Shown: positions 28,381 through 59,858, counted from the stretch's first letter. The stretch is DNA of 64,000 nucleotides from an uncultured Candidatus Saccharibacteria bacterium (GCA_964549935.1 CAZJVT010000001.1:27922-91921), one strand, 5' to 3'. Numbers and translations: made by a program. The notes: a model not told the origin generated them from the letters alone.

Positions 28381-28384
<4 letters not shown>

Positions 28385-28410
28385 TTAGTAGACAGTAGAT
28401 AGTAGACAGC
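28381..28410. repeat. heptamer array (GTAGNNA)x4 + GC at the pilB stop
   Basis: gtagttagtagacagtagatagtagacagc. The first TAG is the pilB stop codon. Confidence 0.55.
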
Positions 28411-28819
28411 ATGGGGCGGGGGCAAGCTGATAAAAAGCAGGAGAGTTTTTGTAATGAAATAAAAGGTAGCTCGGCTTTTTTCCTAGGGAGTAGCGAAAGA
28501 TGCCTCCAGGCGTCGAGTCTGGTGCTCTTCTGATGTTCTATGAAGCCCTGAAGACCGGAGCGGGAGCTCCGCAGTTCAGAGAGCTAGAATTTTTTAATAG
28601 AATATAAAAAGCCGCGCGGATTAACCTCTGTGCGGCCTCCCTACAAATAGAAACAACAATTAGGAGTTAGGAGGCAGGAGAAGTAGCAGCAAGGCAAAGG
28701 CATTTCGGGCGCTCTATAAGCTATCCACAGGTTATCCAGTGTGGTGCTTTGACATATTTTCCGCGTGATATACTAATTTCACGTTTTGATGACCTCTACC
28801 ATTATAGAGGTAGGGGGGC

Positions 28820-28848
28820 TTGACAAATAGGTAGATTGGTGCTATACT
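28820..28848 (+). promoter_or_regulatory. consensus sigma70-type promoter TTGACA-17-TATACT
   Basis: TTGACA at 28820-25, a 17-nt spacer, and TATACT at 28843-48. Confidence 0.45.
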
Positions 28849-28895
28849 GTATCTTAGAAGGGGTGCGCTACGTACCCTTACTACTTTGTTCTTTT

Positions 28896-29064
28896 AAAAC
28901 CGCATAGTAGTGGGCAAAATGGAATGACCCGTTGAATTGGACGACTTGGCTCCGGCTGGGGCGCTCCTCAACTTTATTCTTGGTTTCTTTTTAGATTTTC
29001 TAAGAAAGAACTTTTTATCAGTTTCCTCCCCAGGTGCTGATTTTGCCCACTACTATGCGGTTTT
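28896..29064. repeat. 169-bp element bounded by perfect 25-bp inverted repeats (MITE-like or long closing helix of a structured RNA)
   Basis: AAAACCGCATAGTAGTGGGCAAAAT (28896-28920) is the exact reverse complement of 29040-29064. The interior holds further palindromes. Confidence 0.55.
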
Positions 29065-29227
29065 GCATTTGCGAGGGCCTTCGCAGAGATGCTCGAATTT
29101 CTCAAGAACGGCAGGGGAACCTTTTACTGCCGTCTATGAGAAATTCGGGCATCTTCGATTTTTGCGCAAATGCAAAACCGAAGTCGTAGCGGTTCTGCGA
29201 TTGCGCTATCGGCGCAGCGCGGAAGGT

Positions 29228-29252
29228 AGCCGCCTTTGGCGGCTTTTTATAT
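29228..29252 (+). terminator. rho-independent terminator
   Basis: agccgccTTTggcggct hairpin followed by TTTTTAT. Confidence 0.5.
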
Positions 29253-29294
29253 TTGGTGCTTTTGGGAGAGAAGCTATATACTCAAGTTACGAAT

Positions 29295-30314
29295 ATGGCT
29301 GAAAAGAAGCTTAAGCAAGACAACGGGGAGCCCATTGATGACCGCGCCATAGACGTTATTTTGCGCCCAAGTAGCTGGGACGAGTACGTCGGGCAGGAGA
29401 AGGTCAAAAAGAACCTGCGCGTCATTTTGCAGGCTGCTATGCAGCGCGGTGAGAGCTGCGACCATCTGTTGTTTTTTGGTCAGGCCGGACTTGGCAAAAC
29501 GACGCTGGCCAACTTGGTCGCGCGCGAACTTGGCGCAAATTTAAAAACGACCTCCGGTCCGGCGATTGAAAAAATGGGTGACCTCGCCGCTGTGCTGACC
29601 AACCTTTCGAAAGGGGACGTATTATTTATCGACGAGATCCACCGCCTGAACCGACTCATCGAAGAGGTTTTGTATCCGGCGATGGAGAGTCGTAAACTCC
29701 ACCTGATTGTTGGTAAGGGCCCAGGCGCGCGGACAGTCACGCTCGACCTGCCACCGTTTACTTTAATTGCGGCGACGACACGGCCAAACTTAATTTCTGC
29801 GCCGCTACGTTCGCGTTTTGGCGCGACCTTTAAACTTGATTATTACGAGCAGCCGGACATCGAGCTCATCGTAAAACGCAGCGCGAAGATGTTTGATTTA
29901 AATATTAGCCCGGAGGCACTTCAGATTATCGCCGAGGCCTCGCGCTTCACGCCGCGTACGGCCAACAGATTGCTGCGCCGCGTGCGCGACTACGCGCAGG
30001 TACATTACAAGGAGTTGATTGACGCTGATGCTGCGCAGAAGACGCTCGAGATGTTGGAGATTGATAACCTGGGGCTTGAGCCGCACGACCGCAGAATTTT
30101 AGAAGTACTCATCGACAAGTTCCACGGTGGACCGGTCGGGCTCTCGACGCTGGCCGCGGCATTTAACGAGGACAAGGGGACTATTGAGGATGTGTACGAG
30201 CCGTACCTGATGAGCATCGGACTCCTCGTTCGCACACCGTCAGGACGACGCGCAACCGAGAAGGCCTATGACCACCTGGGTAAGTTAGATGGCAATCAAC
30301 CAAAGCTTAGCTAG
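29295..30314 (+). CDS. ruvB: Holliday junction branch-migration helicase RuvB
   Basis: LRPSSWDEYVGQEKVKKNL, Walker A GQAGLGKTTLA, Walker B DEIHRL, and a C-terminal winged helix. Confidence 0.9.
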   Translation: MAEKKLKQDNGEPIDDRAIDVILRPSSWDEYVGQEKVKKNLRVILQAAMQRGESCDHLLFFGQAGLGKTTLANLVARELGANLKTTSGPAIEKMGDLAAVLTNLSKGDVLFIDEIHRLNRLIEEVLYPAMESRKLHLIVGKGPGARTVTLDLPPFTLIAATTRPNLISAPLRSRFGATFKLDYYEQPDIELIVKRSAKMFDLNISPEALQIIAEASRFTPRTANRLLRRVRDYAQVHYKELIDADAAQKTLEMLEIDNLGLEPHDRRILEVLIDKFHGGPVGLSTLAAAFNEDKGTIEDVYEPYLMSIGLLVRTPSGRRATEKAYDHLGKLDGNQPKLS

Positions 30315-30316
30315 CC

Positions 30317-30859
30317 ATGCTTAAGATTTCTGAAGTTCTTGCCAACCCAAGTGGCACCGATAAAAATGCGGAGTACGTTGTGATTCGTAATACTGAGGCT
30401 GCGCCGATTACCGTCTCGGGTTACAGTATTAAGACGGCCGGCGGCAAGGCGATTAAAGTCACCGGCGTTGTGCCGGCGGGCGGGGAGCTGAAGGTGATGA
30501 CCGGCAGCGTCGCGCTTAAAAACACCGGCGACACATTGAGTTTAGTTGGGCCAGCCGGGCAGGTAGTTGATTCGTTTACCTATACAACTGCGGCTGATGG
30601 GCAGGCGCTTCAGCCGGCAGCGTTTTTGACGCCGGAGCTAAAGTCGCAGCTTTTCGATGAGATTGCGACGACTTCACCCTCCCAAATTTCTGAAGGAAAT
30701 TTAGGAGGGCAAGCCACTCCCGCCACTTCGACGCTCTTGCTCGGGATTGCCTGTGCTGTTATCCTAGCCGGGCTTTCGGTGTATGTTTTAAAACAGGTGC
30801 GCTATGACGAAATCATAAGGAATCCTTTCGCAAAGCAAAAGGATTCCAGTAGTCAGTAG
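30317..30859 (+). CDS. lamin-tail-domain (LTD) protein with C-terminal transmembrane helix
   Basis: SEVLANPSGTDKNAEYVVIRNT...SGYSIK motif typical of the LTD. Hydrophobic C-terminus. Confidence 0.45.
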   Translation: MLKISEVLANPSGTDKNAEYVVIRNTEAAPITVSGYSIKTAGGKAIKVTGVVPAGGELKVMTGSVALKNTGDTLSLVGPAGQVVDSFTYTTAADGQALQPAAFLTPELKSQLFDEIATTSPSQISEGNLGGQATPATSTLLLGIACAVILAGLSVYVLKQVRYDEIIRNPFAKQKDSSSQ

Positions 30860-30878
30860 CTAGTAGGCAGTAGTTAGC
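30848..30878. repeat. heptamer array (AGTAGNN)x4 + AGC spanning stop of LTD gene and ending at tsaE ATG
   Basis: agtagtcagtagctagtaggcagtagttagc, followed immediately by ATG at 30879. Confidence 0.55.
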
Positions 30879-31361
30879 ATGAAACAAAAAACAATGAAGG
30901 GCGGGAAGAAAATTCAAATCAAAAATGCAGTCGCGATGCAGAAGTTCGCGGCGGAAATGGCGCGTGAACTTATCGCGCAGCCGCTTGGCAAACATGCGAA
31001 GGTGATTTCTCTTACCGGCAATCTGGGTGCCGGTAAGACGACCTTTACGCAGGGATTTTTGCGTGAGCTCGGTGTCCGTCGCCGCATCATCTCTCCGACA
31101 TTTTTAATAATTCGACCTTACGATTTGAAGGCCGATGAGTACGCCCGTGCGTTTCATATCGATTGCTACCGGCTACAAAAACCGCAGGAGTTGGCCGCTT
31201 TGGGTTTTAAAGAAATTTTAGAAAATCCGGCGAATATTGTTTTGATTGAGTGGCCGGAGATTGTCAGTGAGTTGCTGCCAAGAGAGATTGTTCGAATTGC
31301 GATTGAGCACCCGGAGAGTGGGAGTACCCGCAAAGTGCAAATCGCAAATAGCAAAGCGTAG
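30879..31361 (+). CDS. tsaE: tRNA threonylcarbamoyladenosine biosynthesis ATPase TsaE
   Basis: LTGNLGAGKTTFTQGF P-loop. 160 aa. Confidence 0.7.
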   Translation: MKQKTMKGGKKIQIKNAVAMQKFAAEMARELIAQPLGKHAKVISLTGNLGAGKTTFTQGFLRELGVRRRIISPTFLIIRPYDLKADEYARAFHIDCYRLQKPQELAALGFKEILENPANIVLIEWPEIVSELLPREIVRIAIEHPESGSTRKVQIANSKA

Positions 31362-31444
31362 GGCAGGGAGAGGGGGAGCAAAAACGAGAGAGGTCCGCGG
31401 GCGACCTCCTCGTGGGCGGTCGGCGGACCTCAGATTGCGGCGCC

Positions 31445-31648
31445 CTACATGTAGGGCTGGTAGTGCTCGATGATCGCACCGCCTCCGCGTACCCTGACGA
31501 GCGCGGCCTCCTTGATCGTGGAGTCAGAGTGGTAGCGCTTCCGGAACTTCTCGCTCGCGTCGTTGTCGGACGCGGCCAGGAATCCTTGAGGTGTCGCCAC
31601 TTTGCCGCCGCCTGCTTCGTGATACATGTCGGCTCGGTACCTGTGCAT
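31445..31648 (-). CDS. small hypothetical protein (67 aa) on a GC-rich islet with strong SD
   Basis: AGGAGGT sits 6 nt upstream of the ATG. GC3-rich codons contrast with neighbours. The stop lies in the palindrome CCCTACATGTAGGG. Confidence 0.35.
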   Translation of the reverse strand: MHRYRADMYHEAGGGKVATPQGFLAASDNDASEKFRKRYHSDSTIKEAALVRVRGGGAIIEHYQPYM

Positions 31649-31755
31649 CGGTGTACCTCCTGTAGCCCTTTTTATACTCCTGGCGTAGAATAAAGGCAAG
31701 CAAAATCCCTCCCCGCCGCAGGCGGTACTCCCTTTAGGAAAAGGAGAATAAAACA

Positions 31756-32631
31756 ATGAAAAAGCTCCTACTCATCGACAGCCACGCCCTCATCCACCGT
31801 ATGTATCACGCGATGGCACCACTTACGACGCCAGATGGGGAGCCGATTGGTGCCATCTACGGCTTGTCGCAGCTTTTGATGCGCATGATTACCGAAACGG
31901 TAAAGCCAGATTATGTTGCCGCCTGTTTCGATCGTCCGGAGCCGACGTTTCGTAAAGAGATGTTTGCGGAGTATAAGGCACATCGCGAGGCGACGCCGAG
32001 CGATTTGATTTCGCAAATTATCAAAGCCCGCGAGGTGTTTGCGCAATTTAAAATAAAAATGTTTGAGCTACCGGGATTCGAGGCGGACGATTTGATTGCG
32101 ACGCTCGCGACGAAACTTCATAACGAAAAAGATTTACAAGTTTCGATTTTAACCGGCGACCGCGATTTGCTGCAGCTGGTGCACGCTGATCACGTCGTCG
32201 TTGAGCTGTTTAAAAACGGGGGAGGTGAGACGATACATATGAACGAGGCGGCGGTCATTGAGAAGTACGGCCTCAATCCGCTGCAAATTGTCGACCTGAA
32301 GGGCCTCATCGGTGACCCCTCCGACAATATTCCGGGAATTCACGGCGTCGGCGAGAAAACGGCTACGCCGCTACTCAAAGAGTTCGGAACCGTCGAGGGG
32401 GTGTTTGAAAATCTCGTGATTGTGCCGGAGAAGGTGGCCAAAAAGTTCCGGGGGCACGAGGAGATCGCGCTGAAGTGTAAAAAGCTCGCCACGCTGGAGC
32501 GTAACGTGCCGATTTTCTTGGACTCACTCGAGGACTTAAAAGCATTGCCGCTCGACCGACCGGAGCTGATTTCGTATTTTGAAAAGCTTGGGTTTGTCTC
32601 GCTGATTCGGCGGCTGCGCGGAGAAAGCTAG
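31756..32631 (+). CDS. stand-alone 5'-3' exonuclease (Pol I N-terminal / FEN-like)
   Basis: LLLIDSHALIHRMYHA...GFEADDLIATLA...HhH motif. 291 aa with no polymerase domain. Confidence 0.75.
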   Translation: MKKLLLIDSHALIHRMYHAMAPLTTPDGEPIGAIYGLSQLLMRMITETVKPDYVAACFDRPEPTFRKEMFAEYKAHREATPSDLISQIIKAREVFAQFKIKMFELPGFEADDLIATLATKLHNEKDLQVSILTGDRDLLQLVHADHVVVELFKNGGGETIHMNEAAVIEKYGLNPLQIVDLKGLIGDPSDNIPGIHGVGEKTATPLLKEFGTVEGVFENLVIVPEKVAKKFRGHEEIALKCKKLATLERNVPIFLDSLEDLKALPLDRPELISYFEKLGFVSLIRRLRGES

Positions 32632-32666
32632 AGTTTCTGGCGAAATTCTGGTGGTATACTAATTCT

Positions 32667-33572
32667 ATGAATGCTCGCGCATCCTCGCGCCTTGTTGGTT
32701 TACTAAAAAAGCCGGAGGTGCAATTTTTCTTGATTTCGCTTATCCCGCTAATTGCGGTTTTTATTGTTACCAGAATCTATATTCCGGTAGAGCAGCAGCC
32801 CTTTATGGATGTCGTTTTGCTCGGCATGTTCGGGATTATTACGTATCAGATGATTTATTCGGTCTATATGCACGCAAAGCTGGCGGAACGGGAGCGGGCC
32901 TTTTTGAGCGTTTCGGCACACCAAATGCGTTCGCCGCTGACTGCGGTTAAATGGATTTTGTCGGAGATGGGTAAGAATGACAACAAGCCCGAGGAGCGCA
33001 AAGATTTAGCTCGGGTCGGGGATGTCGCGGTTACAAAGCTCAACAACATTATTGATGCGTTTTCGGCCATGGCTCGCGTTGATGAGGGTGCGACCGAGGA
33101 GCGCATGGCGAATATTGATATGTGCGAAGAGATCGAGAAGTCTGTTGAGGCTGCAGAGCCTGTCGGAAAGCAGTACGGCGTTGCCGTCCACTTTGAAGGG
33201 CCGTGCGAGGAGCTTTGGGTGCGTGCCAATCCGGTAAATCTGGAGATGGTTTTTTCGAATCTGATTAACAATGCGATTAAGTACAATCACCGAGGAGGAA
33301 TGGTCGCAGTTGGTGCACGCAAGGTTCACGGCGGGAGTCAGATTGAGGTGATGGTACGCGACACCGGTATGGGCATCCCGCCAAACGAACAGGGGAGGAT
33401 TTTTGAGCGATACTTCCGTGGTGCACAGGCGCAGCGGGTTAACGAGGCCGGTTCCGGACTCGGACTCCACTTAACCAAAACGATTATCGAGCAGCACGGC
33501 GGGACGATCTGGCTCGAATCAATCCATGGCAAAGGAACGACGTTTCACTTTACGCTTCCCACGACGAGGTAG
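32667..33572 (+). CDS. sensor histidine kinase (HisKA + HATPase_c)
   Basis: H-box SAHQMRSPLTAV, N-box NLINNAIKYN, G-boxes DTGMGIP / GSGLGL, and two N-terminal transmembrane helices. Confidence 0.75.
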   Translation: MNARASSRLVGLLKKPEVQFFLISLIPLIAVFIVTRIYIPVEQQPFMDVVLLGMFGIITYQMIYSVYMHAKLAERERAFLSVSAHQMRSPLTAVKWILSEMGKNDNKPEERKDLARVGDVAVTKLNNIIDAFSAMARVDEGATEERMANIDMCEEIEKSVEAAEPVGKQYGVAVHFEGPCEELWVRANPVNLEMVFSNLINNAIKYNHRGGMVAVGARKVHGGSQIEVMVRDTGMGIPPNEQGRIFERYFRGAQAQRVNEAGSGLGLHLTKTIIEQHGGTIWLESIHGKGTTFHFTLPTTR

Positions 33573-33601
33573 TAGATAGGGGGGCGGGGTTTGAATTTTT
33601 G

Positions 33602-33632
33602 CTGACTACTGTCTACTATCTACTGACTACTC
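33602..33632. repeat. heptamer array in inverted orientation (CTGACTACT...) before mutM, paired with partial forward copy GTAGTAGATAGG at 33569-33580
   Basis: The reverse complement reads AGTAGTCAGTAGATAGTAGACAGTAGTCAG. It forms a hairpin with the upstream copy across a GGGGGGCGGGG spacer. Confidence 0.5.
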
Positions 33633-33638
33633 TTTGCC

Positions 33639-37650: not shown

Positions 37651-38412
37651 ATGTTTGCCTACCTCTACGGACCAGACACGTATCGCCGGGGTCGGTATCT
37701 GCGCGAGCAGCTTCTGGCTCCGTATCACAAGAAGTACCCGGACGGGAGCGTCGGCGTTTTTGATTTGCTCGAGGAGGATGCGGTCGCAAAGCTGCAGAGT
37801 TTTAGTGGCGGCACCGGACTTTTTGCGAAAACAGCGCTGGCCGTTGTGTATCATCCCGAGGAGGGGGAGAAGGAGTTTGTAAAATTTTTGAAAGAGGTCG
37901 GGGAGTCTACGGCAACGACGGTTATTGTCGTGGCCGACAAAAAACTGACGAAGGAGTTTGCATTTTTGATGAATGGTAAAGAAAAAGAGTTCGAGCCGCT
38001 CTCCGGTTTGGATTTTCTTAAGTTTATTAAAGCGGAGGCAAAGACGCTCGAACTCGCTGTGACGGACGTGCAGCTTAAGGCGATAGGCGAGGCTTACGAC
38101 GGCGATACCTGGGCGGCGATGACCGAGATTGAGCGAGTGGCCGCCGGCGGCGCTATCGAGCAGCACACCATCGTCGTGGACTTCATGGGCCTCCTGCGCA
38201 CACTCTCGGCGGGCAGAAATTTGCCGGCCTTGCTGCGGGCGCTCACGCTCCTGACTGACTACGATGAGCCGGCTAAAGTTTTTAATCTCCTGGGCGCATT
38301 CGTTTACGGTAGCGCGAAGATAAAAATGGCCGACTACGACCTGGCGGTTAAAACAGGGAAGCTGGAATACCCCGAAGTCCTACTGGACTTTGTATTAGGA
38401 GCTAGTAGTTAG
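37651..38412 (+). CDS. possible DNA polymerase III delta subunit (HolA-like)
   Basis: MFAYLYGPDTYRR... N-terminus and overall helical pattern resemble short HolA proteins. Weak call. Confidence 0.3.
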   Translation: MFAYLYGPDTYRRGRYLREQLLAPYHKKYPDGSVGVFDLLEEDAVAKLQSFSGGTGLFAKTALAVVYHPEEGEKEFVKFLKEVGESTATTVIVVADKKLTKEFAFLMNGKEKEFEPLSGLDFLKFIKAEAKTLELAVTDVQLKAIGEAYDGDTWAAMTEIERVAAGGAIEQHTIVVDFMGLLRTLSAGRNLPALLRALTLLTDYDEPAKVFNLLGAFVYGSAKIKMADYDLAVKTGKLEYPEVLLDFVLGASS

Positions 38413-38427
38413 GAGTCAGGAGTTAGC
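38401..38427. repeat. heptamer array (AGTAGTT AGGAGTC AGGAGTT AGC) spanning stop of upstream gene
   Basis: gctagtagttaggagtcaggagttagc. The TAG at 38410-12 is the stop codon. Confidence 0.5.
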
Positions 38428-38444
38428 TAAGAGAAGGCATACGC

Positions 38445-38468
38445 AAAAAGACCCTTTCGGGTCTTTTT
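38445..38468. terminator. bidirectional rho-independent terminator
   Basis: aaaaagacccTTTCgggtcttttt. Confidence 0.6.
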
Positions 38469-38493
38469 GCTGCTAGCTTCGGACTACTGTCTC

Positions 38494-38754
38494 CTAGCTA
38501 CTTTTCACTTTGACTGCGAGACGGCCCTTGAGGCGGTTGGCGGTGTTCTTTTTGATGACGCCCACCTTGGCGGCTTTGTCGAGTTTTTGGTAGACGAGCG
38601 CGAGTTCCTTCTTGGCCTCTTCAATCTTCTTACCCTCGACGAGCTTCTTGTAGGACTTGATGACCTTCTTAAGCTCCACCTTTTGAGCGGCGTTTTTCTC
38701 GTAGCGGCGGCGGTTTTGACGAAGCGCCTTTTTGGCTGTACGTGTAACTGGCAT
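38494..38754 (-). CDS. rpsT: 30S ribosomal protein S20
   Basis: MPVTRTAKKALRQNRRRYEKN... Confidence 0.85.
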   Translation of the reverse strand: MPVTRTAKKALRQNRRRYEKNAAQKVELKKVIKSYKKLVEGKKIEEAKKELALVYQKLDKAAKVGVIKKNTANRLKGRLAVKVKSS

Positions 38755-51176: not shown

Positions 51177-51279
51177 GTGTAGACCTCGAGTATGTGACAT
51201 TGCTTGCGAGTCGCTTGTCGAAGCGGTCGCAGCTGTAAAGAGCATTTCGCAAAGCTCCTTGCAGCTGCGACCTATTTGA

Positions 51280-51607
51280 GGTGGAGTTGGGGATATCGAA
51301 ATCCCGTCCAAAAGTTTCTGCAATAACAGTCTACAAGCTTAGGATCGAAACAAGTTCGAAGCGAATGAACTCTAAGTTTTAGTGATGCGCGTAGAGTTCA
51401 ATCGGCGCATCCTTATTCCCAGATATAACACCAGTATTCCGACTATGGGAAGTTATCGGACTGATGGCTTACGCTAGGCGTAGGCTAAAGCAAAATTGCT
51501 CTGACGAGTAAAGTTGGCAGTTTATGATTTTTGGATCAGATTTACGAGTTAATCCTGCTCGGCTTGCATGTTATTACAAAGAACGATTGTCGAAGCCTGG
51601 CAACCCC
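51280..51607 (-). ncRNA. ssrA: tmRNA (ssrA)
   Basis: Minus-strand 5' GGGGTTGCCAGGCTTCGACAATCG... and 3' ...GGACGGGATTTCGATATCCCCAACTCCACC. G3·U70 acceptor pair, T-arm GGATTTCGATATCC. Tag reading frame GCC AAC TTT ACT CGT CAG AGC AAT TTT GCT TTA GCC TAC GCC TAG at 51518-51474. Immediately downstream of smpB. Confidence 0.7.
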
Positions 51608-51608
51608 G

Positions 51609-52070
51609 TTAGCGCTCACCGCGCATCTCCCGGACATCCGCTTTCTTTTTAAGAACTTCGCGTTTGTCCGACTTCTTGCGGCGGCGGGCGATACCGAACA
51701 ATATCTTAATTCGGCTGCCTTTATTATAAACTTTTATAGGCACTATTGTCAACTTTTGGTGCAGGCCGTCTAAAATCTTCTCAATCTCGTTTTTATGCAG
51801 CAGGAGCTGTCGAGGGCGGTTTTGGTCGTAATCGGGCTGATTAGCGGGCTGGTAGGGCGGGATATCGGCTCCTACGAGGTAGGCAGAGCCACCACGGACC
51901 AGGATTTGGCTGCCGGCAATCGTGATGCGGCCGTTTTGGATAGACTTAACTTCCGGTCCGAGCAGCGCTAAACCGGCCTCGAAGGTGTCCATCATCTCGA
52001 AGTCAAAATTGGCGCGGCGATTTTCCGCGAAGGTCCCGGTTTTGAGTTGCTTCTTTTCCATATCCTTCAT
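51609..52070 (-). CDS. smpB: SsrA-binding protein SmpB
   Basis: ENRRANFDF...GSEVKSI...KLLLHK motifs. 153 aa. Confidence 0.85.
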   Translation of the reverse strand: MKDMEKKQLKTGTFAENRRANFDFEMMDTFEAGLALLGPEVKSIQNGRITIAGSQILVRGGSAYLVGADIPPYQPANQPDYDQNRPRQLLLHKNEIEKILDGLHQKLTIVPIKVYNKGSRIKILFGIARRRKKSDKREVLKKKADVREMRGER

Positions 52071-52107: not shown

Positions 52108-53814
52108 ATGCAGGAGTTACTCCAAAAGAAAATTGCTGAAACGCTTGGCGTGCCGCTTGAGCAGGTGAGTATCACCGTGCCGGAGATCGCCGAGTTCGGG
52201 CACTACTCGACTAACGTCGCGATGCGCTTAGCCAAAGATGCTAAAAAGCCGCCGCTTGTTTTAGCCGAGGAGTTTGCGCAAAAGCTGAAGGCTTCAGCTC
52301 CGGAGATGTTCGCAGATGTAAAAGCCGTGAAGCCGGGTTTTATTAATTTTTGGATTTCAGAAAAGTTTTTGCAGGAGCAGTTCGAAAAAACGCTTCACGC
52401 TTCACGCTCAACGCTACACGCGGGAGAGAAAGTCATCGTCGAGTACGCCTCGTGCAACATCGCTAAGCCGATGCACGTCGGCCATCTGCGTTCGACCATT
52501 ATCGGCGACGCCCTTGCGAATATTCACGCCTACCTGGGTTACGACGTTATCCGCTGGAACTACATCGGCGACTGGGGGACGCAGTTTGGAAAGTTAATAA
52601 CGGCTTACAAGCTCTGGGGTAAAAAAGAAGATATCGAAAAAGATCCGATTGGCGCAATGCTGGAGCTCTATGTCCGTGTCAGCGCAGAGGCGAAGGAGAA
52701 TCCTGCCTTAGACGAGCAGGCGCGAGCCGAGTTTAAAAAGCTGGAGGAGGGCGACGCCGAAAACCGCAAGCTGCTGGAGTGGTTTAAGGCCGAGTCGCTG
52801 GTTGCGTTTAACACACTCTTTGCCCGTCTGGGCGTGAAGTTTGATATTGAGTACGGAGAGGCGTTTTACGAAAAGGCCCTAGCCGGTGTTAATGCCGAAC
52901 TTGCAGAGAAGAAGCTTTCGGAGCAGAGCGAAGGAGCGGTCATCGTGAACTTAGACAAGTTTAAATTGCCGCCGGCGCTCGTCCAGAAAGGGGACGGAGC
53001 CAGTTTGTATCTCACGCGTGACATCGCCAATCTTGAGTATCGCTTAAAGGAATACAAGCCGGCCAAGATTTTACTCGTCGTCGCTAATCAGCAGGCACTT
53101 CACTTCGAACAGCTCTTTGCCGTCGCGCAGCTGCTTGGACTCACAGGCTCTGAATTGCAGCACGTGAAGTTTGGTATGGTGCTTGGCCCGGACGGTAAGA
53201 AGTTTGCGACTCGCGAAGGGAAGTTGATTAAGCTCGAGGAGCTGCTTGATGAGGTCACGGCGAAGGCGATGGCGGTTGTGTCGCGCAACAACGTGGAGAT
53301 GCCCGCTGATCAGGCCAAGGCTATCGCAGAGATGGTTGGCATCGGCGCGCTCAAATACAATGACTTAAAAGAAAATCGTAACTCGGACATCACTTTCAAC
53401 TGGGAGGCGATGCTGGATTTGCATGGCGACTCTGCACCGTATTTGCAGTATGCCGCGGTGCGGTTTATGAGTATCGTTAAAAAAGTTGAAGAAAAGTGGG
53501 GAGCATCTCAAGGCGGAAAGCAAGCAATTTGGTTTGAGTGGTTAGATGATGACCTAAAATTTGGGTTGATGAAAAAAATCCTGGATTTCAATGACGTCGT
53601 CGTGTTGAGCGCATCAACTTATTACACAAGTCATCTTGCGAAGTATCTGTTTGAGCTCGCGAAACTCGGTAATCAGTATTATGAGAAATACCGAATTCTT
53701 GAAGATCAAGAGCAGGGTCGTCGTGGAGGCCGAGTTGAGCTTCTTAGGTCAGTAGCCAAGACGATTGAAACCGGCTTGAACCTGTTGGGGATTAAGGTGC
53801 CGGAGCGGATTTGA
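52108..53814 (+). CDS. argS: arginine--tRNA ligase
   Basis: Class I HIGH variant SCNIAKPMHVGHLRSTIIGD and a C-terminal DALR anticodon-binding region. 568 aa. Confidence 0.85.
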   Translation: MQELLQKKIAETLGVPLEQVSITVPEIAEFGHYSTNVAMRLAKDAKKPPLVLAEEFAQKLKASAPEMFADVKAVKPGFINFWISEKFLQEQFEKTLHASRSTLHAGEKVIVEYASCNIAKPMHVGHLRSTIIGDALANIHAYLGYDVIRWNYIGDWGTQFGKLITAYKLWGKKEDIEKDPIGAMLELYVRVSAEAKENPALDEQARAEFKKLEEGDAENRKLLEWFKAESLVAFNTLFARLGVKFDIEYGEAFYEKALAGVNAELAEKKLSEQSEGAVIVNLDKFKLPPALVQKGDGASLYLTRDIANLEYRLKEYKPAKILLVVANQQALHFEQLFAVAQLLGLTGSELQHVKFGMVLGPDGKKFATREGKLIKLEELLDEVTAKAMAVVSRNNVEMPADQAKAIAEMVGIGALKYNDLKENRNSDITFNWEAMLDLHGDSAPYLQYAAVRFMSIVKKVEEKWGASQGGKQAIWFEWLDDDLKFGLMKKILDFNDVVVLSASTYYTSHLAKYLFELAKLGNQYYEKYRILEDQEQGRRGGRVELLRSVAKTIETGLNLLGIKVPERI

Positions 53815-53899: not shown

Positions 53900-53932
53900 G
53901 CCGCCAGCTGATTGGGCGGCAATTTTATTTCT
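53900..53932 (+). terminator. hairpin + U-run between argS and ileS (terminator/attenuator-like)
   Basis: gccgccAGCTGATTGggcggc followed by aattttatttct directly before the ileS ATG. Confidence 0.35.
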
Positions 53933-56900
53933 ATGTTAAAAAATCTAAAGGAGTTCAAGTTGCCGGAGATAGAGGAGCAGGTGCTTAAGTTTTGGCAGGA
54001 GCACTCGATTTTTAAGCAGACGCTCGCGAAGAATAAAGGTAAAAAGAAGTACGTTTTCTTTGAGGGCCCGCCGACGGCTAACGGTATGCCGGGCATCCAC
54101 CACCAGCTCGCGCGTAGTTTTAAGGACATCATGCCGCGCTTTAAGGCGATGCAGGGTTACGACGTGCCGCGTAAGGCCGGTTGGGACACGCACGGTCTGC
54201 CGGTGGAGCTGCAGGCCGAGAAGGAGCTTGGGTTTAAAGGTAAGCAGGATATCGAAAAGTTTGGTATCGCCGAGTTTAATGCAAAGTGTAAGGAGCTTGT
54301 TTGGAAGTACCGCAGCGAGTTTGAAGGGGCGACGAATCGCCTCGGTTTTTGGCTCGACCTCGAGCACCCGTACGTAACTTACGAAAACAGCTTCATCGAG
54401 TCACTTTGGTGGGTCTACGCCCGCATCAACAAGCAGGGCTACTTAAAGAAGATGCACAAGATCCTGCCGTGGTGCACCCGCTGCGGTACTGCCTTGTCCT
54501 CGCACGAGTTGGCGCAGGGTTATAAAGAGGTGGAAGACGCTTCGGTGTATGTGAAGTTTAAAGTAAAGAAGGGACAGAAAATAGGTTCGTTTAAAGCGGA
54601 CGACAAAACATACATCTTAAGCTGGACGACCACGCCGTGGACATTACCGGGCAACTTGGCGCTCGCGGTTGGGGAGAAGATCGAATACGGCGCCGTTGAG
54701 GTTTCCGGCGAGCTCTTGATTCTCGCATCCGCTCGTTTCCCTAGCGTATTTCCCGATCCGGCGCTCTACGTTCTACGCTCTACGCTTAACGGATCCGACC
54801 TCGTCGGTCTCGAGTACGCTTCGCTCTTTGACGTGAAGTCGCTTAAGAGTAAGAAGTCTTACCACGTCTACCCGGCTGATTTCGTTACGACGACGGACGG
54901 TACCGGCGTGGTGCACACCGCCGTCATGTACGGTGAAGATGACTACGCACTGGGCAAAAAGATCGGCCTGCCGCAACACCACACCGTCGCTGAAACCGGA
55001 CACTTTACCAAAGAGGTGAAAGGCCTCGCCGGGGCGTACGCAAAATCCAAGACGACTGAAGAAAAGATTTTCGAACACCTTAAGGCTAAAAACTTCCTGC
55101 TGCGCACGGAGCCTTACAAGCACGAGTACCCGCACTGTTGGCGCTGCGGTACGCCCGTACTTTACTACGCGCGTGACTCTTGGTTTATCGAGATGAGTAA
55201 GCTGCGCAGCCAGCTGCTTAAGAACAACGACACGATTAACTGGACACCGTCGCACATTAAAGAGGGGAGATTCGGTGAGTGGCTCCGCGAGGTTAAGGAC
55301 TGGTCCATTAGCCGTGACCGCTACTGGGGCACCCCGCTGCCTATCTGGCAGAGTAAGGACGGCAAGCAGACGATGGTTGTTTCGAGTTTGGCGGACTTTA
55401 AAAAGTACGGGCACCACAGCGGCAACCGTTACTTCGGCATGCGCCACGGAGAGGCGACGCACAATTTGGTTAAGAAAAACGCCGGCGGCAAAGAAACTGC
55501 CGCGCTCCGTTCAGAGCTAACACCGAAGGGGATTATGGAGGCGCAGGCAGCGGCAAAGGCACTGAAGAAAAACAAGATCGACGTCATCATTGCCTCGCCG
55601 TATTACCGCACGCAGCAAACAGCGGCAATCGTTGCCAAGGAACTCAAAAAGAAAGTTGTATACGACAAGCGTCTTGGCGAGATTAATACCGGCATCTTTA
55701 ACTGGCAATCAATGGAGGCTTACTACGCCTGGTTCCCTAATAAGAAAGATCGCTGGGCGACTGCTCCGGAGAAGGCTGAAAATTGGAATGCAGTTCGTGC
55801 TCGTGTCGTTGAGGCGATGCGGAGCTTCGACAAGAAGTATAAGAATAAAAACATTCTCATCATTAGCCATGGAGATCCGCTCTGGATTTTAGATGGAGCG
55901 ATGCGCGGCTTTGCCGACCATGAGTACGTCGAAGAGGCATTTTACCCGGAGATCGCGACTCCCTTTGAGCTCGAACCGCCAGTATTGCCGTTTGATGATG
56001 GAGGGAGGATGGACCTGCACCGGCCGTATGTCGACCGCATTGTTTTGCGCGATCCGAAGACGAAAAAAGAGCTGCACCGCGTTAAAGACGTCGGCGATGT
56101 TTGGTTTGACTCGGGCGCGATGCCGTATGCTTCGCACAACTTCCCGTTTGCCCAGGGAGTAAAGCGTGAGGACGCGCAGAACGACAAGGCGGTCGCCGAG
56201 GCCTTTAAAAAGATTGATTTTCCGGCGGATTATATCGCGGAAGGCGTAGACCAGACCCGCGGTTGGTTTTACACCCTGCTGGCTATCTCGACCACGCTCG
56301 GACTGCCGGCCGCTTACAAAAATGTCATCTCTGTCGGCATCATTGGCGACAAGAACGGGCAGAAGATGAGTAAGAGTAAAGGTAACATTGTCGATCCGAT
56401 GATGATTATGAATAAGTACGGCGCCGATGTGCTGCGTTGGTACTTCTACACGGTCAACGACGCCGGTGATGCGAAAAACTTCGACGAGGCCGACCTCGGC
56501 AAAGTTACGCGTCGCTTCGTCATGATTCTATATAACTCTTTCTTGTTCTGGAGCTCGTATGCAAAGGGAGGCACCGCTAAAGACGCTTACAAGTCCGAAA
56601 ACGTTTTGGACAAGTGGATTTTGGCGCGGCTGCACGAGGTCATCGCCGAGGTGACGCGCATGCTCAACCGTTACGAGATTGGCAAGGCGGCGCTCCTGAT
56701 TGAGCAGTTTACCGATGACATGAGCCGTTGGTACATCCGCCGCAGCCGCGACCGATTCCAGAGCAACGCCCGCGGGGGAGACAACGAGGCGGACTTCTTG
56801 TCGGGCAGCGCGACGCTCCACGAGGTCCTAATGCAGCTTTCCAAGCTCTTGGCGCCCTTTATGCCGTTTTTCAGCGACGCGCTGTATAAGTCACTTGGCG

Positions 56901-57463
56901 GGCAGCAGGATTCAGTACACCTAGAGGAGTTTCCGGTGGGCGACGCGACGGTGGCAAACGCCGATCTGATCAGCGGTATGGCCAAGGTGCGCGCCGCTGC
57001 AGGAGCTGCTTTAGCTGCTCGTACCGAAGTCGGTATTAAGGTCAGGCAGCCATTGCTCAGCTGGAAAATGAAAGACATTAGTTTGCAGGGGCAGGAGCAA
57101 CTTATAGCTATTCTAAAAGACGAAATCAACGTTAAAGAGATATTATTTGATTCTTCTCTTGCTGTGGACAATGAGCTCAACGCGACAATTACGCAGCAGC
57201 TTAAAGAGGAGGGCACTGTGCGTGAGTTAGTTCGTGCGATTCAAGGTCTGCGCGCGGAAGCCGGGTACGCGATGGGCGACAGCATTGTACTGATGCTTGC
57301 CGGCAGTCAGGAGTTTAGTGATCTTATCCAGCGCCACTCGGTGAACTTAAAAAAGTCAGTGAATGCTAAGACGATTGAATTAAAGAAAGGGGAGAAGGTG
57401 GACGTGCAGCTGGATACAAAAGTTGAGGAGTCTCCGGTTTGGATTGGTTTGCGGAAGATTTAA
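53933..57463 (+). CDS. ileS: isoleucine--tRNA ligase (type 2) with inserted histidine-phosphatase (PGAM-like) domain
   Basis: PPTANGMPGIHH (HIGH), KMSKSKGN, editing domain and a DVWFDSGAMPYAS motif. A ~200-aa RHGE...ISHGD histidine-phosphatase domain is inserted at ~55411-56012, between WQSKDGK and DLHRPYVD. Confidence 0.85.
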   Translation: MLKNLKEFKLPEIEEQVLKFWQEHSIFKQTLAKNKGKKKYVFFEGPPTANGMPGIHHQLARSFKDIMPRFKAMQGYDVPRKAGWDTHGLPVELQAEKELGFKGKQDIEKFGIAEFNAKCKELVWKYRSEFEGATNRLGFWLDLEHPYVTYENSFIESLWWVYARINKQGYLKKMHKILPWCTRCGTALSSHELAQGYKEVEDASVYVKFKVKKGQKIGSFKADDKTYILSWTTTPWTLPGNLALAVGEKIEYGAVEVSGELLILASARFPSVFPDPALYVLRSTLNGSDLVGLEYASLFDVKSLKSKKSYHVYPADFVTTTDGTGVVHTAVMYGEDDYALGKKIGLPQHHTVAETGHFTKEVKGLAGAYAKSKTTEEKIFEHLKAKNFLLRTEPYKHEYPHCWRCGTPVLYYARDSWFIEMSKLRSQLLKNNDTINWTPSHIKEGRFGEWLREVKDWSISRDRYWGTPLPIWQSKDGKQTMVVSSLADFKKYGHHSGNRYFGMRHGEATHNLVKKNAGGKETAALRSELTPKGIMEAQAAAKALKKNKIDVIIASPYYRTQQTAAIVAKELKKKVVYDKRLGEINTGIFNWQSMEAYYAWFPNKKDRWATAPEKAENWNAVRARVVEAMRSFDKKYKNKNILIISHGDPLWILDGAMRGFADHEYVEEAFYPEIATPFELEPPVLPFDDGGRMDLHRPYVDRIVLRDPKTKKELHRVKDVGDVWFDSGAMPYASHNFPFAQGVKREDAQNDKAVAEAFKKIDFPADYIAEGVDQTRGWFYTLLAISTTLGLPAAYKNVISVGIIGDKNGQKMSKSKGNIVDPMMIMNKYGADVLRWYFYTVNDAGDAKNFDEADLGKVTRRFVMILYNSFLFWSSYAKGGTAKDAYKSENVLDKWILARLHEVIAEVTRMLNRYEIGKAALLIEQFTDDMSRWYIRRSRDRFQSNARGGDNEADFLSGSATLHEVLMQLSKLLAPFMPFFSDALYKSLGGQQDSVHLEEFPVGDATVANADLISGMAKVRAAAGAALAARTEVGIKVRQPLLSWKMKDISLQGQEQLIAILKDEINVKEILFDSSLAVDNELNATITQQLKEEGTVRELVRAIQGLRAEAGYAMGDSIVLMLAGSQEFSDLIQRHSVNLKKSVNAKTIELKKGEKVDVQLDTKVEESPVWIGLRKI

Positions 57464-57500
57464 AAAGGTGAGACCCCGGCCGGAGCCAGGGTCTCGTACC
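57464..57500. terminator. bidirectional terminator
   Basis: gagaccc-cggccggagcca-gggtctc hairpin, with an A-run on the plus side and a T-run on the minus side. Confidence 0.5.
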
Positions 57501-57534
57501 TCTGGTCGGCGCGGGGTCGGCGCTAGGGGAAGCC

Positions 57535-57717
57535 TTAGCCGCCCGGCTTCTTCTTCGGCGGGGGCGGAAGGGGTTCGAAGTACCGGTCCTTGTGCGGCGT
57601 CCCCGTGGGAGTCGTGGAGAGATCGCCGAGATCGAGCCCAGCCGTCTTGATCGGCTTCTTGCTCTCCGCAGGCCAGGGGACTCCTGCGCCGTCTTCGGGG
57701 GAATTCGTGTGACCCAT
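57535..57717 (-). CDS. small hypothetical protein (60 aa) on GC-rich islet with strong SD
   Basis: AGGAGG sits 9 nt before the ATG. Sequence MGHTNSPEDGAGVPWPAE...PPPPKKKPGG. Very high GC3. Confidence 0.3.
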   Translation of the reverse strand: MGHTNSPEDGAGVPWPAESKKPIKTAGLDLGDLSTTPTGTPHKDRYFEPLPPPPKKKPGG

Positions 57718-57837
57718 GCTTCGATGCCTCCTGTCAGATTTGCTCCCTCCCCGAAACACTTCGGGGCACCAAAACAATTTGCCATAGCTATGCAAAATGT
57801 CAAACCCCGCAAAAGCGGGGTTTGAAGTTGAGGTCAG

Positions 57838-58839
57838 TTAATTATGTACGCAGTATTTACCTCGACTATCAAGATTCGCGCAGAGGGTGTAGACGAAAGC
57901 GTCCCTTTTCTCGTCGTAGCGAAGCACATACTCATATTCTTTACCGGTTATCGGGTCGAGTGTGTCTTCTGTTTCACCGCCGCCCCATAGATTTTTTAGA
58001 GCAGCGAGTTGTGCAACCGGCTTGCTTCGGTTGAGCATCATTTGTAAAGCATTTAAATCGAACATCCGGACGTAGTCTATCGGTGGTACGCCATGTAGTC
58101 GTGCTTCTTCGAGGGTCAGTTGAGTAACGGCTTTCGCGCTCATAAAATCTTTATATCGCTCAGGTAGCTGGCGTTTCAATTCGTCCAACATGTTTTCATT
58201 GACGCGCTGCTTGTATTTCTCCGTTGCTTTAGCCTGTTCTGACTTGCTGGGGGCAATTACCCATGCGAATGGTTGGCTATATTCTCCATTATAAAAACCG
58301 CCAAGCCGACGACGAATTATTCCCCATTTAACTACGTCGGTATGCGATGGCCCGTGTGTCCAGCAACCGAGACCAAGCGGGCCACATTCTAAAAAGGTTT
58401 GAACGCCTCTTTCTAGCTTGTATCCACTCGGAGAGGGCTGTTTCTGTCTGGCATCGCTTACTGTAAAGTTCTGTGCTTCTGTCCAGGAGATCGGCTCAAA
58501 GGTATTCGAGCGCATATTATAAAGTAATAGCCGCGGGTTTCTCATTAACGTCGCGCTTAGTACTTTTGATTCGTCGCGGGTTATCTTGTTATTTTCGATG
58601 GTGTACGTTGCGCCACCGTAGGCGTCATTATTTAGAGAATAAATAATACTCTCCGGGAAGGCAAAGAGACTGAAAGGGCGAATGTCGGTAGTGAAGGTTA
58701 AAAAACATAGTGCTAATACTAATAAAATACGTATAACCCCTTTTAGGCTTGATTTTGGCTTAGCACTTAGGGCTTTGTCGGTGCCAGTTTCCGCTTTTGG
58801 CTCAATGGTGTCGGCGAGATTTTTGGCAGGCTCTAACAT
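57838..58839 (-). CDS. hypothetical membrane-anchored protein (333 aa)
   Basis: N-terminal transmembrane helix (IRILLVLALCFLTF). No recognisable domain. Confidence 0.45.
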   Translation of the reverse strand: MLEPAKNLADTIEPKAETGTDKALSAKPKSSLKGVIRILLVLALCFLTFTTDIRPFSLFAFPESIIYSLNNDAYGGATYTIENNKITRDESKVLSATLMRNPRLLLYNMRSNTFEPISWTEAQNFTVSDARQKQPSPSGYKLERGVQTFLECGPLGLGCWTHGPSHTDVVKWGIIRRRLGGFYNGEYSQPFAWVIAPSKSEQAKATEKYKQRVNENMLDELKRQLPERYKDFMSAKAVTQLTLEEARLHGVPPIDYVRMFDLNALQMMLNRSKPVAQLAALKNLWGGGETEDTLDPITGKEYEYVLRYDEKRDAFVYTLCANLDSRGKYCVHN

Positions 58840-58840
58840 A

Positions 58841-59821
58841 TTAGGCGATTAGCCCGACTTTCTGGTAGGCCTCTTTGAGTTTAGCGCTGGCAACCTTGTT
58901 GGCCTTTTTGGCGCCGGAGGCGAAGACTTTCAGGGCCTTTTTCGGGTCTTTCACTAGCTCCATTTTCTTTTTACGAAACGGGGCTAGAGCGTTAACGATG
59001 ACCTCGGCGACCGCAGCTTTGAACTGGCCGTAGTTTTTGCCGGCAAACTCTGTTTCAAGAGCGGCGACGGTCTTGCCCGAGAGGGTGCTGGTAATCAAGA
59101 GGAGGTTGCTGATGCCGGGTTTGTTTGCCTCATCAAACTTAATTTCGCTGCCGGAGTCGGTAACGGCGCTCATAATTTTCTTTTTAATCATCTCCGGTTC
59201 GTCGTCTAAAAACAGGCAGCCGCTCGGTTGTGACTTGCTCATCTTCTTCATCGGGTCGGCGAGTGACATCACGCGGGGGAGCTCGGTGTGCTTTGCCTTT
59301 GGTTCGACGAAGGTTTCACCAAAACGGCCATTAAACTTTCGAGCGATGGTGCGCGTGAGTTCGAGGTGTTGGTCCTGGTCATTACCAACTGGCACAAAAG
59401 CGGCGCCGTAGAGAAGAATGTCGGCGGCCATTAGGACGGGGTAGGTAAAGAGACCCGCGTTAGTCTCCATATGGTCAGATTTGTCTTTGTATTGAGTCAT
59501 TCGCTCAAGTTCTCCCATGGGTGTGATCGTGTTAAAAATCCAAGCAAGCTCGCTGTGTGCCGGAATGGCGGATTGGATAAAGAGGGTAGACTTGCGCGGG
59601 TTGAGTCCGGCGGCGAGGTAGCTGGCGGCTAGGTCAGCAATTTGCGCGCGCTTTTCCTCCGGCGTGTAGCCTTCGGTAAGCGAGTGTAGGTCGGCAATGA
59701 AAAAGTACGGCTCGTATTCGCCGCTGTTTTGCAAATCAACAAAGTTTTTGAGAGCTCCGAGGTAGTTGCCGATGTGGAGTCGTCCTGACGGCTGGATACC
59801 GGAGATAATGACGGGTTTCAT
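58841..59821 (-). CDS. trpS: tryptophan--tRNA ligase
   Basis: ISGIQPSGRLHIGNYLGA (HIGH) and KMSKS motifs. 326 aa. Confidence 0.85.
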   Translation of the reverse strand: MKPVIISGIQPSGRLHIGNYLGALKNFVDLQNSGEYEPYFFIADLHSLTEGYTPEEKRAQIADLAASYLAAGLNPRKSTLFIQSAIPAHSELAWIFNTITPMGELERMTQYKDKSDHMETNAGLFTYPVLMAADILLYGAAFVPVGNDQDQHLELTRTIARKFNGRFGETFVEPKAKHTELPRVMSLADPMKKMSKSQPSGCLFLDDEPEMIKKKIMSAVTDSGSEIKFDEANKPGISNLLLITSTLSGKTVAALETEFAGKNYGQFKAAVAEVIVNALAPFRKKKMELVKDPKKALKVFASGAKKANKVASAKLKEAYQKVGLIA

Positions 59822-59858
59822 AGGGATAGTAGTTAGTAGACAGTAGCTAGTAGTTAGC
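59822..59858. repeat. heptamer array (AGTAGNN)x4 + AGC directly upstream of trpS start (antisense to trpS)
   Basis: agggatagtagttagtagacagtagctagtagttagc. Confidence 0.55.

Follow-up and report, generated by a model that had tools for sequence, protein, structure and literature searches.

Short tandem heptamer arrays occupy gene boundaries in a stretch of 64,000 nucleotides (nt) from an uncultured Candidatus Saccharibacteria bacterium (GCA_964549935.1 CAZJVT010000001.1:27922-91921), which we refer to throughout as the window. These arrays are a variant, from the candidate phyla radiation (CPR), of the intergenic heptanucleotide arrays of cyanobacteria, Bacteroidota and Beggiatoaceae that have been described as short tandemly repeated repetitive sequences (STRR), long simple sequence repeats (LSSR) or TAACTGA repeats. 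Our favoured explanation, to which we assign a probability of about 0.45, sees the (AG[T/G]AGNY)x4-AGC blocks as arms of small insertion modules, whereby a full module consists of an inverted pair plus its cargo and solo arms are half modules. The best reading of the repeats is that they mark insertions between genes in a small, CPR-like genome that makes no use of ribosome-binding sites.

Intergenic heptanucleotide arrays have been known for decades, and their design is shared by bacteria ranging from the CPR to Acidobacteriota, Bacteroidota and Cyanobacteria. The window holds an unusually clean version of them, with a fixed length, a 5+2 design, a fixed polarity, insertion relative to a syntenic relative and an in-frame copy free of stops. 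The most interesting aspect, which lies partly beyond the coordinates of the window, is that genes of the PF05635 four-helix-bundle (4HB) family are almost always embedded in heptamer arrays across phyla. To our knowledge, neither the heptamer arrays nor the PF05635 proteins of intervening sequences (IVS) have been assigned a function since the early 1990s. For genome annotation, the arrays explain gene calls that end inside repeats in such genomes, and 120-aa 'four helix bundle protein' genes are flagged as probable insertions.

Array format and copy number

The window contains at least nine heptamer arrays (Table 1), including all seven sites listed in an earlier reading of the same DNA, made from the sequence alone and referred to here as the sequence-only reading. 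It had described them as three to four tandem 7-mers; the repeats are indeed there, but their format is stricter, with exactly four units followed by AGC in six arrays (28380+, 30848+, 33631-, 59828+, 38397+ and 38502-) that share a 31-base layout, (AG[T/G]AG-N-Y)x4 then AGC. AGC is the terminal triplet of every array in the window. Alignment of the 24 units of the six strict arrays gives A in 23, G in 24, T in 19 or G in 4, A in 24 and G in 24, followed by any base and by a pyrimidine in all 24; the five-base core is essentially invariant and variability is confined to the two-base linker (5+2 design). Tandem Repeats Finder (TRF) reports a period of 7 and 3.3-4.4 copies. The motif search that had been suggested for the genome was run on the window, where the AGTAGNNAGTAGNNAGTAG pattern with up to two mismatches has 15 matches against 0.08 expected from shuffles, and none of 100 shuffles reached 15. 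The two arrays around the 4HB gene are a variant with GTTAG-type units. An exact 9-mer, GGGGCGGGG, has only two copies in the window, both just 3' of an AGTAG arm.

The sequence-only reading had overlooked the partner array at 38472-38502, the identity of the gene enclosed by one pair, the fixed polarity of the pairs and the kinship to a phenomenon described in other phyla (PMC4679880). The hairpin that it had placed at 33569-33632 is an inverted pair, albeit one with a left arm of merely 13 nt and with its ends at 33567 and 33631.

An invariant five-base core held at a 7-nt phase and joined by a free linker implies sequence-specific recognition by some factor and argues against plain slippage. 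It is quite improbable that the arrays are neutral products of replication slippage (period-7 LSSR), intergenic only because they would break genes elsewhere. Heptamers are the commonest simple repeats of 5-11 nt in many prokaryotes (Mrazek et al. 2007, as summarised in PMC4679880), and many of the arrays in other phyla repeat an identical unit over long stretches, both of which would suit such an origin; yet the window shows no copy-number variation among near-identical units, as every site has four units plus AGC and the units are non-identical, varying at positions 6-7 and between T and G at position 3. Furthermore, the 30848 array, the only one compared, is identical to the window in independent Logan contigs from two sequencing runs, the polarity of inverted pairs is 21:0 among the matches listed in the cross-phylum scan below, and the arrays are linked to one gene family.

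Placement relative to genes and translation signals

A gene map was drawn that covers about 92.5% of the window. AGTAG occurs at 7.5 per kb outside coding sequence and at 1.25 per kb within it, a 6-fold enrichment, whereas AGGAG is not enriched (ratio 1.1). Neither strand has a run of two or more TAG-bearing units inside a gene, and every stop-bearing array copy is located outside coding sequence. Arrays in forward orientation carry TAG every 7 nt and hence stops in all three frames, and two thirds of the units in the window also give a stop on the reverse strand. At five sites (28382, 30857, 11620, 38410 and 33570) the stop codon of the upstream gene is itself a TAG within the array, the owners being the PilB-like gene, the LTD-domain gene, gene 10897-11622, gene 37651-38412 and the histidine kinase (HK) gene, respectively, which agrees with the stops in all frames and the gene-end placement noted earlier. 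Stop-bearing blocks occur only where stops are harmless, flush with the end of the upstream gene or just before the next start. A version without TAG persists in frame inside the gene of a UvrD/PcrA-like helicase, where it sits in a shortened 2B-linker region that takes the place of most of helicase domain 2B.

Stop-free heptamer arrays of other kinds are also found inside genes of the window. They comprise CGCAAAT x3 in the PilB-like gene (28039-28062), CGCAAAK x4 at 31329-31355, which codes for the part of TsaE that extends C-terminally past its Pfam domain, ACGCTTC in the arginyl-tRNA synthetase gene (ArgRS; 52390-52421) and CGCTCTA in the Ile/Val-type synthetase gene (54762-54786). A GTTAG/CTAAC-type inverted repeat of 23 nt, 83% complementary, lies within the rsmA (KsgA) coding sequence at 5021-5140; it resembles the arms of the 4HB cassette and comes with no obvious gain in length relative to Escherichia coli KsgA.

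Start codons are found 0-7 nt from an array at tsaE, the 4HB gene, prgI, mutM and a gene of the Trp/Tyr-tRNA synthetase family. On the mRNAs of the last three the array runs in reverse, so that the mixed orientation relative to the downstream gene, reported before, holds. The accompanying claim that several arrays end in AGC 0-1 nt before the next ATG has to be narrowed: the AGC end is general, but ATG directly follows it only at 30879 (TsaE) and 28412 (a doubtful open reading frame, ORF, of 40 codons), and at 11653 it follows after 2 nt.

A tetramer resembling the Shine-Dalgarno (SD) sequence precedes 6 of 59 starts, compared with 12% of random 15-mers, and SD is effectively not used in this genome; the view of the arrays as something other than a simple SD, in an SD-poor genome, is borne out. 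A TATACT-type -10 box lies 6-10 nt before many of the start codons, a spacing suggestive of widespread leaderless mRNAs. The possibility that AGUAG pairs with an altered anti-SD was discarded, since ordinary starts show no AGTAG enrichment upstream. Likewise the arrays are not clustered regularly interspaced short palindromic repeats (CRISPR), as had been recognised, given their 7-nt units and lack of spacers versus CRISPR repeats of 23-47 nt with spacers of similar length. Stop codon usage in the window is TAA 36, TAG 19 and TGA 5.

The same placement bears on a role in mRNA. The arrays could be cis-acting sites for a multimeric or cooperative RNA-binding protein that sets the translation of the adjacent gene in a genome devoid of SD sequences; the candidate binders are a HutP-like protein reading UAG-N4-UAG-N4-UAG, a cold-shock-domain (CSD) protein with a 7-nt footprint, or ribosomal protein S1. 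The HutP antiterminator site consists of three UAG triplets, four nucleotides apart. The array sequence has this UAG-N4 spacing, although the arrays are not situated in leader terminators. Proximity to five starts, the unused SD, the lack of structure in solo arms and the invariance of the core beside a varying linker would all fit such a protein, and an RNA-binding protein has been proposed for the TAACTGA arrays (PMC4679880). We nevertheless consider it unlikely. The orthologous junctions of a relative function without arrays, and arrays face starts in both orientations, which would put AGUAG in the RNA of some genes and CUACU in that of others. Across phyla, among the matches listed, the arrays abut stops rather than starts; in the window one pair surrounds a terminator between gene ends, one copy lies inside coding sequence, and the Pfam-scanned proteins include no HutP, CSD or similar protein.

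Comparison with syntenic relatives

The closest syntenic contig found, L123, has a RuvB that is 66% identical and the gene order PilB-RuvB-TsaE-exonuclease...HK-MutM. Its PilB-RuvB junction is an 18-nt spacer where the window has an array and 870 nt of non-coding DNA; its RuvB-TsaE junction is TAAATG, without any spacer, where the window has an extra LTD-domain gene and an array flush with the tsaE ATG; and its HK-MutM junction is a plain AT-rich spacer of 30 nt where the window has an array pair of 66 nt. No period-7 arrays were found in L123. The comparison of orthologous junctions called for earlier hence finds the arrays absent from those of this relative, and it indicates that the module is gained or lost together with adjacent DNA.

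The 4HB gene can be followed through three further contigs. In L212 a 75% identical 4HB gene comes after the same upstream gene as in the window and has the same arm type; in L214 a 58% identical 4HB gene with AGTTAGTC-type arms lies exactly between rpiB and rpe, which overlap in L204; and the 4HB gene of L204 itself has TAATCAGA-type arms and is situated between pfkB and the gene of a transketolase. L204 and L214 share 49% identity in the 4HB protein but 42% in RpiB and 28% in Rpe; overall, the 4HB proteins are 49-58% identical across contigs whose housekeeping proteins share 28-42%. The arms, placement and identity in the three contigs are what a cassette travelling in company with its arms would produce. 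In L212 the PrgI-family gene (472-873) is inverted relative to the window, with both of its neighbours keeping their orientation.

Three roles had been put forward in the sequence-only reading: the footprint of a small mobile element, a binding array, and a signal for translational coupling or ribosome release. The first is the best supported, since the arrays are absent at the L123 junctions, bound inserted DNA and flank a mobile-looking PF05635 cassette. A binding array is a possible, putative role, the core being invariant and the linker varying; no binding protein for the array core was identified among the Pfam-scanned proteins of the window. Translational coupling or ribosome release would be compatible with the anatomy of the arrays, but the relative L123 works without them, and therefore coupling cannot be the reason why arrays exist at these junctions.

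The block inserted between PilB and RuvB contains a candidate structured non-coding RNA (28820-29252). Its candidate promoter, TTGACA-17-TGcTATACT, has 11 of 12 consensus matches, and a second one was recognised by eye at about 28750-28778. The roughly 400 nt after the candidate promoter reach a folding energy of -187 kcal/mol (z -11.7) and contain a long-range stem between 28897-28920 and 29044-29067, and the candidate RNA ends in an intrinsic terminator at 29228-29250. The whole block (28385-29252) is missing from L123. A blastn search of the block against plasmids gave no match, and Rfam at gathering level found only one tRNA and the tmRNA in the window and nothing significant in 28380-29300.

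Inverted pairs and their folding

Three loci in the window are inverted pairs, all with the polarity 5'-AGTAG...CTACT-3'. Their cargo is a terminator hairpin in the first case, a short G-rich loop in the second and the 120-aa PF05635 4HB gene in the third. The 38397-38502 element folds at -52.7 kcal/mol (z -6.2), the 33567-33631 pair with its G-rich loop folds at -24.3 kcal/mol (z -2.7), and the GTTAG arms around the 4HB gene form an inverted repeat of 25 nt that is 84% complementary. The folding of solo arms is not beyond chance (z -0.5 to -0.8). A separate hairpin of 10-13 bp (GGAATCCTTT...AAAGGATTCC) occupies the last codons of the LTD-domain gene at 30819-30847, directly before the 30848 array, with a folding energy of -20.5 kcal/mol (z -5.2) for the 81 nt that include it.

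Association with the PF05635 four-helix-bundle family

PF05635 is a functionally uncharacterised domain, homologous to Avd of diversity-generating retroelements, that also occurs in rRNA insertions of CPR bacteria (bioRxiv 10.1101/2024.02.27.582315). The 4HB protein of the window (11653-12015) has a weak match to bAvd. An iterative search of all loci yielded eight 4HB genes. Arrays directly flank six of them; those of L031 and L062 had no AGTAG array nearby. Among the six is that of L168, a locus chosen only for its RuvB, with GAATGCT/AGCATTC arms. Array-flanked 4HB genes are those of the window, L110, L069, L071, L032, L168, L204, L214 and L212.

An unbiased sample of eight plasmid 4HB genes was obtained by tblastn (Calothrix, Nostoc x2, Pseudanabaena, Geminocystis, Leptolyngbya, Riemerella and Gemmatirosa). 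Inspection by eye showed period-7/8 arrays at one end or more of every gene and at both ends of seven (within ~100 nt); the arrays are inverted in L216, L218, L219 and L220. Objective scoring found a flanking period-7/8 array (within ~120 nt) in 10 of 14 4HB genes, and on both sides in nine of these ten, provided that the array 115 nt upstream in L215 is counted; the arms of the four misses are visibly repetitive, with an irregular period. Arrays passing the same threshold number 0.047 per kb in the loci selected by RuvB, taken as background, and 7 over 50 kb of a Nostoc plasmid, where a stricter threshold leaves six, two of them flanking its only 4HB gene. In L217 (Pseudanabaena galeata plasmid NZ_CP112875.1, 46268-46627) the 4HB gene lies between cas6 and cas4; its flanks, of the same orientation, were scored as 126 nt of CTAAAAG upstream and 114 nt of mostly CCAAAAG downstream. 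The gene of a Nostoc sp. C052 4HB protein (WP_114080759.1) has an (AGTCAGG)5 arm.

The arms show some relation to the protein that they enclose. The L215 and L217 4HB proteins are 72% identical and both have CTAAAAG units, and those of the window, L212 and L214 are 58-75% identical and all have (A)GTTAG units. AGTAG-type arms, in contrast, flank four 4HB proteins that are only 16-39% identical, so that arm type does not simply follow the protein; the notion that it is set by the 4HB subfamily is unsupported for AGTAG arms.

These observations raise the question of whether the arrays are cis elements of the PF05635 4HB protein, which would bind or propagate them, with orphan arrays as its dispersed sites in the manner of repetitive extragenic palindromic sequences (REP) and REP-associated tyrosine transposases (RAYT). 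Arrays accompany the gene closely in many phyla, close relatives of the protein share a unit, the cassette is co-oriented with the upstream gene in 11 of 12 cases, and the phyla rich in AGTAG arrays are those generally known to be rich in PF05635. The explanation is nonetheless doubtful: arm type is untied to the protein among the four with AGTAG arms, the arms of the cassette in the window differ in type from the orphan arrays, the stand-alone PF05635 family has no known biochemical activity, and the linkage could mean that arrays are merely safe or recombination-prone landing sites. A broader proposal, which we put forward as speculative and rather improbable, is that STRR-type arrays and PF05635/Avd-like proteins are two halves of one cross-phylum system, in which the 4HB protein would bind, protect or propagate 5+2 arrays and orphan arrays would be its cis sites; if true, it would give a function to two features. 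A literature search of the searchable library found no paper that mentions the PF05635 family together with heptamer repeats. Should the link hold in a full census, it would open both the repeats and the protein family to direct experiment, with the Nostoc PCC 7120 plasmids, Riemerella and Pseudanabaena as tractable carriers of linked arrays and 4HB genes.

Recurrence in other phyla

A scan for (AGTAGNN)3AGTAG with one genome per species returned at least 120 loci from many phyla. The matches listed come from Bacteroidota, Cyanobacteriota, Acidobacteriota (many of them Pyrinomonadaceae), Planctomycetota, Chloroflexota, Elusimicrobiota, Gemmatimonadota, Patescibacteria and others, and the counts that follow refer to these matches. 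Of the inverted pairs spanning up to 700 nt, 21 read 5'-AGTAG...CTACT-3' and none the reverse, and most pairs enclose a GC-rich hairpin. Viewed in the AGTAG orientation, the array faces the stop end of its 5' neighbour 59 times and the start end 28 times; that stop mostly falls -19 to +6 nt from the start of the array, and the distances on the 3' side are typically 50-600 nt.

The 5+2 design is also found with other units, CTAAA+NN in L204 and TTAGG+NN in L208. L204 is a CPR-like contig (GCA_040960375.1) in which five consecutive junctions within a 20-kb stretch (2268-2406, 3267-3334, 6137-6310, 6950-7130 and 11467-11649) are filled by inverted pairs of heptamer or octamer arrays, up to about 170 nt long, built from CTAAATC/GATTTAG or ATCAGA-type units. 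Stops in six frames do not hold as a general rule, as many AGTAGNN units across phyla give no stop on the reverse strand. The 4HB arms of L216 have stops in the 3' arm only.

Proposed insertion modules at gene boundaries

In the explanation that we favour, a full module would run from a 5' purine arm (AGTAG) through its cargo to a 3' pyrimidine arm (CTACT), reading identically on both strands, with a cargo ranging from almost nothing through a terminator hairpin to a PF05635 4HB gene; solo arms would be half modules that edge other inserted DNA. The arrays would persist at gene boundaries because translation is stopped there in all frames. In the RNA, the 5' arm is predicted to halt ribosomes from the upstream gene at the boundary in every frame; since a pair is identical when read on either strand, this boundary stop would operate in both directions. 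Paired arms may fold into a long stem through which the transcript is terminated, processed or stabilised, by analogy with IVS stems, REP and Correia elements, whereas a solo arm would place a spacer free of structure and of SD sequences just ahead of the next AUG, in a genome whose translation starts without SD.

Several observations weigh against insertion modules. L123 is distant, and loss there could replace gain here. Neither a transposase nor an integrase or reverse transcriptase adjoins any module examined, and no target-site duplication was found at the modules. A 4HB hidden Markov model (HMM) run against all window ORFs of at least 25 aa matched one gene only, leaving the solo arms without a 4HB remnant, so that they are not visibly decayed cassettes; moreover, the single 4HB cassette of the window has GTTAG-type rather than AGTAG-type arms, and the 4HB genes of L217, L221 and L222 are flanked by direct or unrelated arrays. 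Stops in all frames on at least one strand are present in 13 of 15 intergenic heptamer arrays, only moderately above a random heptamer unit. The cross-phylum loci were chosen by the AGTAG pattern itself, and consequently the conservation of AGTAG among them is no independent evidence; the polarity of pairs and the position relative to genes are independent of this selection. Finally, the termination, processing and stop functions are deduced from sequence alone.

Features of the window and their neighbourhood

Table 1. Heptamer arrays of the window, their cargo and associated motifs (window coordinates; 4HB, four-helix bundle)
Feature	Coordinates	Strand	Remarks
Stop-free copy, AGGAGAC AGGGGCC AGGAGAC AGGAGAC AGC	4264..4294	+	In frame in the UvrD/PcrA-like helicase gene
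Left arm of 4HB cassette	11617..11651	+	GTTAG-type, mixed period 7-8, AGC end; contains stop of gene 10897-11622
4HB gene, 120 aa	11653..12015	+	PF05635 (23S_rRNA_IVP), E 1.9e-34; cassette cargo
Right arm of 4HB cassette	12003..12038	-	GTTAG-type, mixed period 7-8, AGC end; overlaps 4HB stop; flush with PrgI-family ATG (12039)
Solo arm, AGTAGTT AGTAGAC AGTAGAT AGTAGAC AGC	28380..28410	+	First TAG is stop of PilB-like (T2SSE) gene; left edge of a ~870-nt non-coding block missing from L123
GGGGCGGGG	28413..28421	+	Directly 3' of the 28380 arm
Degenerate AGGAG/AGTAG array, AGGAGTT AGGAGGC AGGAGA AGTAGC AGC	28662..28692	+	Within the same inserted non-coding block
Solo arm, AGTAGTC AGTAGCT AGTAGGC AGTAGTT AGC	30848..30878	+	Second TAG is stop of LTD-domain gene; ends flush with tsaE ATG (30879)
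Short left arm (AGGTAGTAGATAG)	33567..33579	+	Contains stop of histidine kinase gene; pairs with the right arm
GGGGCGGGG	33581..33589	+	In the loop of the 33567-33631 pair
Right arm, GCT-(RNCTACT)x4 on + strand	33599..33631	-	7 nt before mutM ATG
Left arm, mixed AGGAG/AGTAG	38397..38427	+	Contains stop of gene 37651-38412
Perfect 12-bp bidirectional intrinsic-terminator hairpin (GCAAAAAGACCC / GGGTCTTTTTGC)	38443..38470		Cargo
Right arm	38472..38502	-	74% complementary to the left arm over 31 nt
Solo arm, GCT-(NNCTACT)x4 on - strand	59828..59858	+	6 nt before ATG of Trp/Tyr-tRNA synthetase-family gene

The Trp/Tyr-tRNA synthetase-family gene next to the last array occupies 58841-59821 on the - strand and has a TAGAAT -10-like box just upstream on that strand. 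Elsewhere in the window, 17715-22257 is the neighbourhood of a replication origin, with rnpA, yidC and jag (R3H) on the - strand and dnaA and dnaN on the + strand; the cumulative GC skew has its minimum at ~16-20 kb, and boxes resembling TTATCCACA are present in the dnaA-dnaN spacer. The gene at 53912-57463 encodes a class I aminoacyl-tRNA synthetase of the Ile/Val/Leu type (1183 aa), whose catalytic domain is split by a His_Phos_1 (histidine-phosphatase) domain at residues 510-660, an unusual insertion. A transfer-messenger RNA (tmRNA; Rfam, 105 bits) adjoins smpB in the ordinary arrangement at 51279-52070; ARAGORN did not report it.

Comparison with known systems

The window arrays resemble several known classes of repeat without coinciding with any one of them. 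An identity with integron attC sites, suggested by the similarity of GTTAG to the GTTRRRY core, was considered and judged improbable on account of the four tandem cores, the pairing across an ORF and the absence of an integrase from the window.

With REP, bacterial interspersed mosaic elements (BIME) and Correia elements the arrays share more. These are short dispersed repeats found after stops, often paired as RNA hairpins that affect termination, processing and mRNA stability, and the GTAG tetranucleotide is conserved in REPs. Like REP and Correia, the arrays of the window are short dispersed repeats after stops that often occur as hairpin-forming inverted pairs, and GTAG is common to both. 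REP/BIME units are imperfect palindromes of about 20-40 nt. Those of the arrays, in contrast, are not palindromes, and the arms are built of tandem heptamers; no RAYT (Y1 transposase) is present among the Pfam-scanned window proteins.

Intervening sequences lie inside 23S (or 16S) rRNA genes, are cut out of the transcript by RNase III and can carry an ORF of the PF05635 family. The 4HB cassette has this ORF as well, enclosed by stem-capable inverted repeats (the 25-nt, 84% complementary arms), but it lies between protein-coding genes of a type IV secretion-like operon and its arms are tandem 7-8-mers. The window contains no rRNA genes.

A closer match is provided by STRR/LSSR, with which the arrays share head-to-tail 7-nt units, dispersal through predominantly non-coding DNA (here within the 64-kb window) and a lineage-specific sequence. 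STRR/LSSR arrays are typically longer runs of identical units and variable in length, unlike those of the window, which are short, of fixed length and imperfect at two positions.

The TAACTGA repeats occur in 2-6 copies in marine Beggiatoaceae, some Cyanobacteria and Bacteroidetes, and their function and route of transfer were unknown to their describer (MacGregor 2015, PMC4679880). They are mostly forward, end ~1 nt before a start, carry stops in three frames and are found where SD is rare (PMC4679880). The forward arrays of the window likewise have stops in all frames. Those at 30879, 11653 and the doubtful 28412 lie near a start in forward orientation; the others are reversed or face no start. 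The unit TAACTGA itself is not that of the window, which is AG[T/G]AGNY with a fixed four copies, an AGC end and a 5+2 core and linker; inverted pairs are common in the present family, compared with just one in the Beggiatoa genome, and the link to a gene family seen here has no reported counterpart for TAACTGA. Both are nonetheless tandem intergenic 7-mers with stops in all frames that often overlap the upstream stop at SD-less junctions and are scattered across phyla.

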